Of a stretch of DNA of 64,000 nucleotides, positions 5,317 through 60,062 are shown one piece after another (within the stretch, counting starts at the first letter, position 1; each line of letters begins with the position of its first letter). The position numbers and the translations under genes were made by a program. Origin of the DNA: Octopus vulgaris (taxonomy: Eukaryota); NCBI GenBank assembly GCA_951406725.2, contig OX597814.1, forward strand, positions 118,792,001-118,856,000, in the 5' to 3' direction. A model generated the notes under the pieces. That model was given only the letters and a program-made list of their open reading frames with translations. It did not search any database and was not told where the DNA came from.

Positions 5317-5448
5317 TTTATTATATAGAAGGAGCTTCTACAGGACTAGAACTGTTTCATTCAAGAGAAATCATCAGGAAGCGCTTCCTGATGATTTCTC
5401 TTGAATGAAACAGTTCTAGTCCTGTAGAAGCTCCTTCTATATAATAAA
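5317..5448. repeat. Perfect 132-bp palindrome (66-bp arms, no spacer)
   Basis: Base-by-base self-complementary around aggaagc|gcttcct (centre 5382/5383). Confidence 0.97.
5383..5431 (+). ncRNA. Type I hammerhead ribozyme, canonical core (mirror copy on - strand at 5334-5382)
   Basis: GCTTC-CTGATGA-tTTCtcttGAAt-GAA-ACAG-ttctagtc-CTGT-A-GAAGC. Stems I and III pair and the site is GUA. Stem II is short with a U-U at 10.1/11.1. Confidence 0.75.
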
Positions 5449-5559
5449 TTAATTTTACTCTGCTATGTATTGAGTACCTTATTTACTGTGGTTAACCCCG
5501 AATCAACCCGGGACCAACATATATATATATATATATATATATATATATATATGTAAGTA

Positions 5560-6690
5560 TATGAACCACAGTCAGATGTATTCATTTCACACTCGGGAAA
5601 GTGGCTCTTCAACAGATAGGAATACGAGAAAATAATTAGAGGAGGAATAAAAACACTTGTGGATTTACCAAGGCGACAGGTTAGGGAAAAAAGACTTGAC
5701 AGGAAATGTAGAAAGAAGGCGACAATGAAGAAAGAAGGTGGGTAGTGATGAAGGGAGGAAGTAGGTGTCAGAGCAAGTGAGGAGAGGAGATGTGGGCTGG
5801 AGTGAAGAGATGTAGTTTCAGATGAGGGGAGGAGAGGAAGGGCGTGAAATGAGGAAAGGACGGGTGTCGAGCCCATGTGGCACAAATGAGCGAAGAGAGA
5901 AGATTAATTCCTGTTCAGGGTAAAGGCAAGAGTCTGGATGGCCACTGTGCAAAGACAACCTGAAAACAGACAAGTGTTGCAGGGAATAACCAGTAGAGCA
6001 GAAATGGCACGAGACTGGGGTGTCATCGCCGAGTCTGATGTCTCGGAGATGCTCCGTGAATCGGTCAGCCAAGCGGCGTTCCGTTTGTCCAATGTTCAGA
6101 GAAAAGCAGAATGTATAGTAAATTGACGTTGCTAGAAGTGCAGGTAAAGGAGTCGGAGATATGATAGGGGCGATGATGAGTGTGTGTGCGGATAGTAGTG
6201 TCGAAGGGGCAAGTCCGACAGTTGAGCCTGAGCAAGGGAACGAGCCAGGCTGGGAGGTGGGGTTAGGGAGAAACTGTGGACCAGGAGGTCTAGCAGGTTG
6301 TGGGCTCGTTTGTTGGAGCATGGATAAGTTGGGGAAGATGTGCGAGGATTAGGGTATTAGACTGGAGTCGCTGGAAGGCTTAGGGAATGATGTGCTGTAG
6401 GGATAGTGTGGAGGGGTGGTAGGTGAGGCGAAACGCGAGTTGGGCAACGGCAAGGCGGTGTCGGGGAATGAGTGCAGGTACACAGTCCAAGGATTGTGCT
6501 CTGGCAATTGCTCTGTGCATAGTGGTGAGGGGATATCCACGAAGGATGAAGTGGCCAGCCATGGGTTAAGACTGAGTCTCAAAATTATTGTTGTCATTGC
6601 AGAGCCTGCGGAGACGGAGAACATGGGAGTAGGAGATGGAGAGCTTGGTGTGGATAAGATGGGGGGAGGAGAATATAATGCAGGCGTGTA
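5560..6690 (-). mobile_element. Penelope-like retroelement, 5'-truncated (RT C-terminus, linker, GIY-YIG endonuclease, 3' UTR)
   Basis: Peptides GHFILRGYP..MHRAIARAQ, LTYHPS and CFSLNIGQTERRLADRFTEHLRDIR..TPVSCHFC..EQELIFSLRSFVPHGL are typical PLE RT-linker/GIY-YIG motifs. Frameshifted. Confidence 0.9.
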
Positions 6691-7299
6691 TATATAATGC
6701 AAACCCTCAGATGCATATATATTCACATATATATACATACTTATCTTTATTTATAATCGACGATAAAATCTTATCTATCCAGAAAAACAATATGACCAGC
6801 TAATTGTTTTCGTGAAGTATAAATAATATTGCTAATGCTGAAGCATTTAATGTGATACACACACACACATATATATATATATATATATATATATATATAT
6901 ATATACATGCATACATACACATAAACTTATAGAAATATTCACACACACATGCATACATACACATACGCATCTGCTTGTATAAATATTAATTCAAATCATA
7001 TATTTATTTTCTTTGTTCTTATGCTCATGTGTTACATCTTGTAGGAATCTCTCTCTTATAACACAACGTAAAAGCGACGTTATCCACGGCTGTGAGAATA
7101 ACAAAACTACTCTTATATTTAGAAGTAATTGTCGTTAAAATACCAATATGAATTACATTTACAATGTTTGAGGCTTCCGAAGATTCCAGAATTCCGGCTT
7201 TTTGATCTATTATTATGTTCAACGTTTGTGTCGTTATAGTTAAAATTCAACTTGCACAACACAAGGTTCGTGCAAAATCTCCTAAATTGGAACTAAAGT

Positions 7300-8300
7300 T
7301 ATCATAATTTAATTTCATTCAAATATTTTCAGCCTCCATAGAAAAAGTTGTTTAGAAAAAATTCACTTTCACTCAGATTACATACAACATTGATGGCGAG
7401 TTCCATAAATTGAATACAGGAGTCAGGAGAGGAGAAAAAATAACCAGAACGGTAAATAAGTTCGAACTGATATAATTATCAACAATTATAATACAGTTTA
7501 TTATTCCCACTTATACAAATGGTCAAAGAAATCATAAAACAGTAAATTAATTTGGTCTGGGAAACCTTTGAAAGTAAGTCTAAATTTAACTGAAGAATGA
7601 TCATTGATATTTCCATACTGGTTGCCTTGTTGCTAATTTCAATTTATAAACTCGGTTGTTCATTGCTAAATCAAATATTCTTTTAATTCTTCATAGTTTG
7701 ATTGTTAGATCCTTGTGAGGTTTCAGGCGTCATTACTAAATAAAATTGTGGGGATAATTCAGTAGTTGTGCAACTCAAACTTAATTGTATCAAAAGTTTG
7801 AAGACGAGTATGGAGTATTTCGTCTGAAAGACAACCAACAAAAATGGAAGTAAAGGAGTTAGAATGGTATTCGGAAAACTGAAAAGGAAACAAATGCCAA
7901 TAATAAAATATATAGGCGAGACTGATATAATTTTGATAAGGATATAGAATCTGAGAAACGTAATCTGCATGTTATGAAATGGAATATTTAATACCTTTAT
8001 TTAATACTTAGGGAAAATGGGATATCTGAATGATATACACAGCAAATGAAATGGGAGAAACGATAATAGTAAATATACAAAGAATATTCAATGTTAAATT
8101 TTTAGATGTTGCAATTTTTAAATACTTTGAAGTTATCGATTACATCTTCAAAAAAAGATATAAAATTTATTTCGTACCTGGATCTCATTGATAAATTGCC
8201 AAGCATTGCTGAGGTTCAGTGATAGATTTTGAAGTATACTATCAAATGTATTACCTGTTTTAGTTATTTTGAGAGCTATGTGTGAAATGAAGGTTGATAC
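7300..8300 (+). pseudogene. Very degenerate LINE RT remnant (RTE-like)
   Basis: DGEFHKLNTGVRRGEKIT (~7391-7445) resembles GVRQGD.LSP. Later LLDPCEVSGV and VRMVFGKL occur in the expected order. Many stops. Confidence 0.3.
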
Positions 8301-8854
8301 CGTAAATTCTAAGGCATATTCCTAAATTTTCATCTACTTATCACTCATAAAGTGCATCTATAATTCGACGTGAAAGCAGGATAATAAACTTTTATACCCA
8401 ATATAAACACCTGAATAGCTAGTAAGAGCGTTGAATTTTAATGAAATAGGTCAGTGTTAAACCGGCAAATACACCTCGTGTAAGCTAGACTGATGCGCAT
8501 TTTATTACATATATTTTATAATTCTTAATAGAGCAAGTACAGAGTTTTGCGGGAAATGCTGTATCAATACAACAGATATTCCACGGAATACAAATTCATA
8601 CAAGGCGAATTAGTTCTTTCTATGAAATGTTATATTGAACAGGTAAACAAACGAGAATTCGACATCATAACGGTTATATATATATATATATATATATATA
8701 TATATATATATATATATATATATATATATAATAACACTTCTGATTGTGTGCTTATATCTATATATATATATATATATATATATATATATATATATATATA
8801 TATATATATATATAATACATATATGGATATACATATATATTCTTTTATTATTTT

Positions 8855-9060
8855 ATTCATTTATTTGTTTCAGTCATTTGAATGCGGCCATGCTGGAGCA
8901 CCGCCTTTATTGGAGCAAATCGACCCTTCGACTTATTCATTGTGAGCCTAGTACTTATTCTAACGGTTTCTTTTGGCGAACCACGAAGTTACGGGGACGT
9001 AAATACACCAGCACAGGTTGTCAAGCGATGATTCGTGGAGTCAAAAACAGAAACGCAACC
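8855..9060 (-). mobile_element. SINE family A, 3' half
   Basis: ttgtttcagtcatttgaatgcggccatgctggagcaccgccttt... is the reverse complement of the family A tail. Confidence 0.9.
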
Positions 9061-58705: not shown

Positions 58706-58909
58706 AGGGGAATCGTTAGCTGACCTCATCCGTAGACGGGTTAATTTCTAAGAAATTAAACATTTTAGATCTCAACTGGATTATTTATTATTGCTGCCGG
58801 GAGCTGTTATGCCAAAGGTCGTAAATTTGATCGGTTGTAAGTCGGATAGGTCATAAGTTGACCTATACATATATAGAAAAATATATTATATATATATATG
58901 TGTGTGTGT

Positions 58910-59250
58910 GAAGGAGTATGGCTCAATGGTTAGAGCCTCAATCTTACGATCGTGTGGTTGTGAGTCGAATACCGGACCGGGCTGCGTGTTGTGTTCTTCA
59001 GCAAGACACTTTATTTCACGTTACTCAAGTTCACTCATCTGTAGAAATGTGTTGCGGCATCACTGGTGCCAGGTTCTATTGGCCTTTCCATTTCCCTTGG
59101 ATAACAGCGGTGGCTTGGAGATGGTATAACACTGGTGTCGTAGTATGCATGGGCGACTGCTGGTTTTTCATTATTAACCTTGCACGGACTTGTGCCTGGG
59201 AGGGAAACATTCTAGGTGGAATCCAATGGTCAGCCATGACCGAAGGGGGG
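58910..59250 (+). mobile_element. SINE family C (tRNA-derived)
   Basis: A-box-like tggctcaatggttagagc, degenerate B box gagtcgaatacc, then a tgtgttcttcagcaagacacttt conserved-core-like segment. Confidence 0.8.
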
Positions 59251-59389
59251 CTCAGCATATATATATATATATATATGTATATATATATATATATATATAT
59301 ATAGAGAGAGAGAGAGAGACAGAGAGACAGAGAGACAGACACAGAGAGAGAGACACAGAGAGACAGAGAGAGGGGAAAGATACACTTTA

Positions 59390-59545
59390 TTAACGCTGCA
59401 AAAACATCACAAAAACTATTAATCAGAGCTTCACGTTCCCGTTTGTCCGACAGTTTTGGTTTAGAATCTCACTCTAAAATATTGCTTTATATTATTACTC
59501 AACATCCGGTATTTGAGTACAGTTTTCTTCACCTTGTGTCGCAAT
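59390..59545. mobile_element. Decayed copy of the 21786 pseudo-LTR family, two pieces in opposite orientation
   Basis: cagagcttcacgttcccgtttgtccgacagtttt and tattactc..ggtatttgagtac..caccttg. Confidence 0.75.
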
Positions 59546-59963
59546 TATCTGCTCCCTTTGCTTTACCTTCCCCTCTCTCTCTCCCTCTTCCTCATCCTTC
59601 TCTCAGCCGCGTGTCTTCCTCTATCTATCTCTCTCTCTCTCTCACTCCTCCTCATTTTCGTCACTGCTAATCCTTTTGCACGTTGCTTTCAGGCCGTAAG
59701 GTCATGTTTCCATGCGCTCGCCAGTACCTCTTCCGTCCCAGCCAGAACAAAGGCCTTTCGTTTGTTTTTTTCGTTTGTTTTCTTGTTTATTTTGATTTCT
59801 CGTATTGTATTTTATTTCTCGTTTTGTATTTTCTTGTACATGTATTTTTATCTTGTATTTTATTGTGCTGTTCTATTGTTACGTCCCTTTTGTGTTACAT
59901 TTTTTCTTGCTTTTTTTTACCCCTCTGCGAGGTTATTTTATTTTAATTCTCTCGCAAGAAGGC

Positions 59964-60062
59964 CTAGTATTGACGAGTCGTGTCCTGTCTTGCCTTCGAA
60001 ACACGCTAAGTCTACTAGTGACAGCTGATGAAGGGGATTTTTCCTTGTGTAGCATGTCCTGT
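59964..60062 (+). ncRNA. Two adjacent imperfect type I hammerhead-like motifs in a pyrimidine-rich PLE-like 3' region
   Basis: CTAGTA-TTGACGA-g..c-GAA-ACacgctaaGT-C-TACTAG, then ACAG-CTGATGA-AGGGGattttTCCTT-gtgtagcat-GTC-CTGT (GAAA missing). Confidence 0.5.

Follow-up and report, generated by a model that had tools for sequence, protein, structure and literature searches.

A stretch of 64,000 nucleotides of the Octopus vulgaris genome (contig OX597814.1, positions 118,792,001-118,856,000; genome of 2.8 Gb in 227 contigs), here called the window, was analyzed for hammerhead ribozymes. We consider it probable that its motifs are hammerhead folds of Penelope-like elements (PLEs) and PLE derivatives. 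Nine would be of type I, with a pair between core positions 3 and 8 that is fixed within families where this could be tested, and one is likely a permuted hammerhead of type SGC, the pairing likely being kept for self-cleavage. The motifs have the hammerhead structure, family cores, covarying helices, a place downstream of reverse transcriptase (RT) and GIY-YIG sequences, and the insertion anatomy of PLEs. An original prediction, made from the letters of the window, had listed about ten type I hammerheads. All of its motifs were found, displaced by a few bases at most. Nine of them stood as type I, and the motif at 59964 was better read as SGC with a canonical core at 60025. This misread locus is the most valuable part of the analysis.

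Laboratory mutants had established that positions 3 and 8 pair in the active hammerhead. Family norms for this pair were read from whole-genome pattern searches that placed no constraint on positions 3, 7 and 8. The counts are of exact matches on either strand, inverted twins included. DNA-similarity searches favor the copies nearest to the query and are no test of a family norm, so free-position patterns were used instead. Cores were tallied by eye on the first 100 rows per family, with G5, A6, A9 and GAAA fixed in the patterns. Families A (46255) and D (37655) had 358 and 1,125 genome matches, and U3-A8 was present in 100 and 99 of the first 100 rows, respectively. Family C (22889, 23941 and 49135), with a 4-bp helix II, carried U3-A8 in all 25 non-retrozyme loci fetched. 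Family B (43710; 7,079 matches) had G3-C8 in 95 rows, and the other five were single changes. Family G (19253; 141 matches) had A3-U8 in 85 rows and single changes in the remainder, which bore out an A3-U8 call that had been tentative. Family E (22005; 8,335 matches) had C3-G8 in 98 rows, with U4 and C4 at about 58:42. All four Watson-Crick 3-8 pairs occur as family norms in this genome. Since the variant cores are family norms, the objection that they are just decay, which the original prediction had itself raised, fails.

A family-free pattern gave 2,732 genome matches, against 86 for its control. Its first 100 rows, read by eye, held 51 U-A, 40 A-U and 4 U.G pairs and 5 mismatches, one of them a register artefact. 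This pattern bars C at position 2.2 and is therefore no census of canonical cores. By its count, the A3-U8 group far exceeds 141 copies. Sister families with U-A and A-U had common helices II and III, and the U-A retrozyme of family A had a C3-G8 sister (collected loci L166-170) with compensated helices I and II. The 3-8 pair and helices I, II and III were all present in the norms of families A, B, C, D, G and E (the last with a weak helix II base) and of the family of the motif at 19921. The core, GAAA and U16.1-H17 accompanied the 3-8 pair, at 5383 and 41118 as single copies only. Two readings were rejected. Helix II of family D as five pairs with a 2-base bulge fitted less well than an in-register fold opening with U.U, which was preferred because a subfamily turns its U.G into U-A. 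A rule tying G3 to U17, which avoids the G3-C17 trap (PMC3884650), fits family B and is broken by U3 with A17 in family C. Other hammerheads were seen in the collected loci. A second family with U4C (and U4) at L172:2574, L177:4320 and L071:2926 had an extra A after A9 and an ACGU helix III. Type I hammerheads at L062:2500 and L099:695 had a stable 4-bp helix III and could act as monomers.

The predicted setting, pseudo-long terminal repeats (pseudo-LTRs) of PLEs and retrozymes, was confirmed by RT/GIY-YIG frames upstream of the motifs and by tandem units of family A. Inverted pairs of family D flanked an unbroken 742-codon RT-GIY-YIG frame, L216:1089-3314(+). It had an RVT_1 match, and RT and GIY-YIG families are found in the atlas clusters closest to it (score 0.98). 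The L216 family has likely been active recently. Inverted pairs of family E flanked a 507-codon RT-GIY-YIG piece (L218, L219). GIY-YIG remnants were present upstream of family G (L212, L220), family C (L154) and the 19921 family (L196 and window 23490-23759). The hammerhead was located downstream of RT-GIY-YIG on the coding strand in families C, D (L216, L217), E, G and 19921, and no such frame was found upstream of families A, B and F or motif 41118. Pfam found neither the GIY-YIG of L216 nor any part of L218; the PLE call was made from RVT_1, atlas matches, visible motifs and tblastn. Both long frames (D and E) carry a cysteine-rich linker, a feature attributed by Craig et al. to Neptune and Nematis PLEs (PMC8557442). 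In L216, the pseudo-LTR between frame and hammerhead was rich in (CA)n/(TG)n.

Family A is a retrozyme by anatomy. It consists of 359-363-nt non-coding units with one type I hammerhead each, arranged as dimers, trimers and partial tandems; the 3' end is fixed and the 5' arms are inverted. Its circular fold was at -134 kcal/mol (z = -8.8), and 0 of 50 shuffles were equally stable. None of the runs listed as containing the unit was on record as RNA. Contigs from sequencing runs guessed to be RNA covered most of the unit and revealed neither its ends nor its strand. Over 46011-46459, four sequencing runs from four organisms gave 24 listed substituted sites, which included N7 and flanking bases and no other core or helix II position. 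A further retrozyme family (L166-L170, C1 at about 20.00 Mb) had 353-359-nt units, C3-G8 and seven copies in an inverted tandem array, and one relative with U3-A8 came up with the family-free pattern. Family B had a near-fixed 5' end just upstream of its hammerhead, an extra G after A9 and an AAUAUU helix III. The window copy is a passenger in a larger repeated unit from 43407 to about 45000. This unit of about 1.6 kb (43407-45000 and L032-L060) had an internal 107-base tandem and many copies at >90% identity, with family B frozen inside.

Features of the window are listed in Table 1. Intact or family-like copies were 20006(-), 21985(-)/22005(+), 37655(+), 43710(+) and 46255(+). Helix II of 19253 and 22889 is broken in the window and restored in the family norm; that of family G is G10.1-C11.1 with a GAAA loop, and the 2-bp helix II of the 19253 copy has decayed. 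In both motifs of 5317..5448, helix II was U.U plus 3 bp, and helix I was interrupted at the inversion centre. No copy of the 5383 motif was found elsewhere among the collected genomic loci, and an (AT)n run separates it from the PLE remnant at 5907..6688, so that an association of the two is only possible. About 0.93 Mb of collected genomic DNA contained no further copy of the 41118 motif. With a descriptor allowing all block orders, no alternative order fitted 5383 or 41118. The window is 33% GC with many (TA)n runs. It also contains 100 N letters (an assembly gap) and remnants of long interspersed nuclear elements at 31867-32493(-) and 11002-11622(-), which had RVT_1 and zf-RVT matches.

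Table 1. Hammerhead motifs and PLE-related features of the window
Feature	Position	Strand	Details
Perfect 132-bp palindrome with two canonical-core hammerheads	5317..5448		C3 at 5388+ and 5377-
Broken PLE reverse-transcriptase/endonuclease remnant	5907..6688	-	tblastn with PLE fragments from loci
Family G hammerhead, A3-U8	19225..19257	-	A3 at 19253; predicted cut after 19229
Intact canonical C3-G8 type I hammerhead, PLE pseudo-LTR family	19921..20015	-	C3 20006; predicted cut after 19930
Three nested, inverted family E hammerheads, C3-G8 with U4C	21858..22070		C3 21917-, 21985-, 22005+
Family C hammerhead, U3-A8	22883..22924	+	U3 22889; helix II broken, 4 bp in family norm
Decayed 19921-family copy	23135..23206	-	About 280 bases downstream of GIY-YIG remnant; absent from original prediction
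PLE GIY-YIG endonuclease C-terminal remnant	23490..23759	-
Inverted second family C copy	23912..23941	-	Helix III palindrome altered
Family D hammerhead, U3-A8	37649..37693	+	U3 37655; helix II starts with U.U; conforms to family norm
Canonical core, 9-bp helix II, irregular helices I and III	41103..41196	+	Single copy
Family B non-coding element, about 250 nt, with inverted arm	43510..43831	+	G3-C8; G3 43710, U17 43746
Family A retrozyme-like copy	46011..46459	+	One 363-nt unit plus 86 nt
Family A type I hammerhead, U3-A8	46249-46290	+	U3 46255; predicted cut 46284/46285
Decayed third family C copy	49100..49141	-	U3 49135
PLE GIY-YIG remnant	51093..51398	+	No hammerhead recognised downstream
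Old decayed family E copy	59420..59449	-	Absent from original prediction
Family F non-coding PLE-type element	59552..60313	+	826-nt unit; two fixed 3' ends 16 nt apart
Candidate type-SGC permuted hammerhead	59979..60036	+	Three blocks S, G, C
Block S	59979-59989	+	U16.1 59983, C17 59984; predicted cut 59984/59985
Block G	59994-60005	+	G12 59998
Block C	60020-60036	+	Canonical core, C3 60025

It is likely, from the sequence evidence, that the motifs cut their own RNA. An unlikely alternative is that the folds of most families are hammerhead-derived and catalytically idle, the 3-8 pair being a structure bound by the PLE protein or a frozen relic. It is favored by copies that come from uncut RNA and by the amplification of wobble and mispaired subfamilies. 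In vitro, cleavage by minimal PLE hammerheads is poor (PMC4209133). A lizard PLE hammerhead needed protein in order to cut, insertion in vitro did not depend on the hammerhead, and the C3G/G8C double mutant restored PLE hammerhead cleavage only partly (PMC11167929). On the other side, double changes restoring Watson-Crick pairing are the norm in five tested families and a mismatch is the norm in none, and the helices covary around G5, A6, A9 and GAAA. The partial rescue by the double mutant also speaks for self-cleavage.

Several observations count against the main reading. A U3.G8 subfamily was amplified too (the 4 rows in 100 given above), as were family E subfamilies with A.A or A.G at 10.1-11.1. 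The 5' ends of family B did not pile up at the cut site; the RNA that was copied was uncut, because at most 4 of 100 copies could begin there. Window copies 5388(+)/5377(-), 19253(-), 22889(+), 23941(-) and 49135(-) were broken in their helices, and when folded only 4 of the 10 window motifs were more stable than 95% of shuffles. The families are related by descent, and independent swaps perhaps number four or five. The original prediction had taken the repeated swaps to imply selection for catalysis. The swaps are family-fixed, but selection itself is only what we infer from them, in view of the amplified U3.G8, the uncut copies and the dispensable hammerhead.

The motif at 59964 belongs to family F, whose copies had (TA)n targets, 5' truncations, partial tandems and inverted arms, marks common to other PLE clades. 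Its motif likely folds as a type-SGC permuted hammerhead. The window copy and the young subfamily had blocks S, G and C in this order with every core nucleotide. Thirteen family F relatives were examined; seven with all three blocks were used, and six shortened or heavily decayed ones were excluded. The downstream CTGAWGA core was present in all 7 divergent members, which were chosen by that core, and was located 27-30 bases downstream of GAAA. A U-H site lay upstream of GAAA, and its flanks formed helix III with the bases that follow GAAA and helix I with those that precede the core.

In four sequences that aligned without manual help, 96.4% of 56 cells were paired as SGC, with six double-changed pairs, three each in helices I and III. 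The covariation score was reached by 7 of 500 shuffles, and slid controls paired at 36-64%. Helix II had one-sided changes only, plus a C-G/U.G/G.U exchange between the F subfamilies; the joint alignment of both subfamilies was out of register and was excluded from the pair counts. In a block-swap test with seven members, native blocks beat swapped ones (p = 0.0016, 0.009 and 0.029 for helices I, III and II, respectively), with relatedness inflating both the swap and the covariation tests and U16.1 placed by best pairing. Of the 27 SGC matches that the all-order descriptor gave in 1.03 Mb, family F accounted for 26; three shuffles gave 0-1. An SGC descriptor gave 30 matches, 28 in family F, and 0-1 in five shuffles.

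This inflation of the tests weighs against SGC, together with the following points. Helix II was weak (two G.U pairs) and varied little. The helix joining stems I and II, which the published SGC-3 requires (PMC10085705), beat no shuffles at 5% in any of the 7 members (best 0.06), with a single geometry tried on decayed copies. G12 or C11.1 had decayed in two older members, and the GCS reading scored not far below. Two other folds were dropped: type II (GSC), which paired on average 2.3 of 9 positions, and a pseudoknotted type I, which failed after relatives were aligned. A conserved purine-rich stretch of family F upstream of 59960 could pair with a stretch downstream of 60050, enclosing the ribozyme. 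A lone F-type copy, L023:1168-1287(-), started about at the predicted SGC cut site.

It is improbable that the motif instead cleaves at a downstream GUC at about 60057-60059 (type GCS), or switches between SGC and GCS. The downstream site paired at 7 of 9 positions in the window copy, its offset of +59 was found in 3 of 7 members, and the all-order scan scored four matches best as GCS, three of them in family F. However, mean pairing was 7.7 of 9 for SGC against 6.4 of 9 for GCS. SGC used fixed offsets of -15/-16 and -18, whereas the best GCS offsets, searched over a wider range, were scattered between 53 and 77. Consensuses of Naiad PLEs, described below, also fit SGC. The original proposal for this locus, a U3.G8 wobble in a type I hammerhead, has very little left to recommend it and was rejected. 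A 6-bp helix I with TTGACGA was present in 53 of 56 young-subfamily matches, and U3.G8 occurs in one published PLE row (PMC4209133 Fig. S3). Helix II, however, fails to form. The heptamer was complete in one of the seven divergent members, and it and its helix I were unconserved in older relatives, whereas the downstream core was conserved.

The SGC layout was also found in Naiad PLEs. These are said to lack canonical hammerheads, and eight "half cores" have been flagged in them, including one octopus and one squid family (PMC8557442). The last 300-400 bases of 40 published consensus records (PMC8557442 supplement) were read by eye. Two octopus Naiad 3' ends, one of them flagged "HHR_half_core", had SGC order, with helices III and I of 5 and 6 bp, respectively, and shared the 15- and 27-base spacings of the window copy, matching the layout of family F; only two pairs of helix II were good. 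In a squid end, helices I and III formed and helix II did not. Six nematode ends (three Nippostrongylus, Haemonchus, Heligmosomoides and Ascaris) gave a clean type-CSG reading, with helices I, II and III of 4-6, 4-5 and 6-11 bp, respectively, and helix sequences differing among species. Type CSG was previously known from two metagenome sequences only. No layout was readable by eye in the remaining 31 ends. The accessible text of PMC8557442 does not call the half cores permuted ribozymes.

Family F shares (TA)n targets, partial tandems and inverted 5' arms with Naiads (Craig et al. 2021, PMC8557442). Unlike Naiads, its copies were seen without a coding frame. Two negative results count against full membership: no frame stood beside the F-type copies examined, so that the N-terminal GIY-YIG and C-terminal RT of Naiads were not seen, and a Naiad-specific motif was absent from the 222 loci searched. 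Judged by sequence features, family F probably derives from the Naiad clade, at most as a non-autonomous element. Compared with the type SGC of Eckert et al. 2023 (PMC10085705), family F is alike in S-G-C order, canonical core, covarying helices and a 3-5-base linker between helix I and helix II strands. It differs in being an animal retroelement, in an extra A after A9 and in an unsupported joining helix. In the accessible sections of that paper, SGC is known from metatranscriptomes only and from no genome of a known organism.

Search controls separated the motifs from background. With positions 3 and 8 unconstrained, the type I descriptor gave five Watson-Crick matches and one mismatch in the window, compared with a mean of 0.2 Watson-Crick matches per local dinucleotide shuffle (n = 20). 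The shuffles were thus far poorer in matches, as the original prediction required. A stricter descriptor gave 4 matches, against 0.15 per shuffle (n = 40). In a blind sample of 400 kb from 20 contigs there were eight Watson-Crick matches and one wobble, against 0.4 Watson-Crick matches in shuffles, in which mismatches predominated. Density was higher in the window (5 Watson-Crick matches in 64 kb, against 8 in 400 kb). A second descriptor, requiring a palindromic helix III, gave 9 matches in the blind sample and 2 across 10 shuffles. Reversed-pattern controls were zero for families A, B, D, E and G and for the young subfamily of 59964; a looser pattern, cited for family C, gave 2,349 matches with 590 in its reversed control. 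Chance matches in AT-rich, repeat-rich DNA are suggested by 3 of the 14 blind-sample matches and by the irregular helices of the single copies 41118 and 5383, but with near-zero controls and a fixed place in PLE pseudo-LTRs this explanation has a negligible probability, is refuted for the eight motifs with a family and leaves 41118 and 5383 only.

Searches requiring CUGANGA had been expected to miss about half of the motifs, and this was roughly supported. The two descriptors gave 14 distinct matches in the blind sample. Three resembled chance, and CUGANGA was present in 4 of the remaining 11; the other seven comprised four U4C, two U3-A8 and one decayed core. The expected under-annotation also agreed with Rfam 15. 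No hammerhead matched 46150-46420, 43690-43800 or 59900-60120 at E up to 10, and nine loci, one of them a C3-G8 retrozyme, had no gathering-level hammerhead match. In the scan of the whole window, no hammerhead was among the 150 of 325 matches listed. The Rfam scans gave only microsatellite-driven microRNA matches and chance matches.

The type I motifs resemble PLE pseudo-LTR hammerheads (PMC4209133; Lunse et al. 2017) in layout and short palindromic helix III. Further likenesses to those of PMC4209133 are an optional base after A9, a site downstream of RT-GIY-YIG, inverted pairs, thousands of single decayed copies and a U3-A8 variant. The descriptors of PMC4209133 fixed C3-G8 or U3-A8. G3-C8 and A3-U8 family norms are in neither its accessible text nor the 56 rows of its Fig. 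S3, and no cephalopod is listed there. Family A is like animal non-LTR retrozymes (PMC7229834; Li, Clavereau and Pollet 2026) in its non-coding, self-paired tandem units and in its type I hammerhead with a 6-bp helix I and a 4-bp helix II. It is unlike them in its U3-A8 core and in its visible PLE-type 5' inversions and fixed 3' end, and it is known here from DNA alone. Among the natural core variants of Perreault et al. 2011 (PMC3088659), U3-A8 covariation, U4C, a 2-bp helix II and U10.1.U11.1 are already present. They are called rare there; here variants are standard in families that number hundreds to thousands of copies, with two further pairings. Other hammerhead literature consulted comprised reviews (PMC6765202, PMC7761336, PMC8495972) and PMC3884650 and PMC13725137. 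In this partial coverage, with key hammerhead papers outside it, no report was found of natural G3-C8 or A3-U8 families, of hammerheads in octopus, or of further SGC or other non-circular permutations. A recent octopus repeat annotation mentions no ribozyme, hammerhead or retrozyme (PMC13282606). It appears that U3-A8 and U4C have been published and natural G3-C8 and A3-U8 families have not.

A possible mechanism is as follows. Transcription of the element would run through pseudo-LTRs in tandem or inverted arrangement. Two motifs would be able to pair through their short palindromic helix III, and cutting would occur only as a dimer, probably aided by the PLE protein. Units of family A may be cut to monomers of about 362 nt and then circularised; a PLE RT would go round such a circle more than once, beginning at a fixed internal position. 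Double steps via tolerated intermediates may shift the 3-8 pair, with C-G becoming U-A through U.G; a change from U-A to A-U would have taken place between sister families. Most genomic copies would derive from uncut RNA and then decay, so that selection would act on a few source elements and not on the window copies.

We lean slightly toward the view that animal PLEs have tried out the full structural range of the hammerhead. Each of the four 3-8 pairs would then be an active natural core within a single genome, and Naiads would have working permuted hammerheads (SGC in cephalopods and family F, CSG in nematodes), the first in genomes of known organisms. The natural high-copy families supply all four 3-8 pairings and are open to direct assay. 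As Rfam found none of the motifs tested and CUGANGA searches would pass over many, ribozyme counts in animal genomes are likely too low. A permuted layout in Naiads would account for their apparent lack of hammerheads, and the permuted motif moves non-circular permutations from unassigned environmental RNA to animal chromosomes. If every PLE clade keeps self-cleaving pseudo-LTR RNA, the view of hammerheads as mere parasites of PLEs would be harder to hold.

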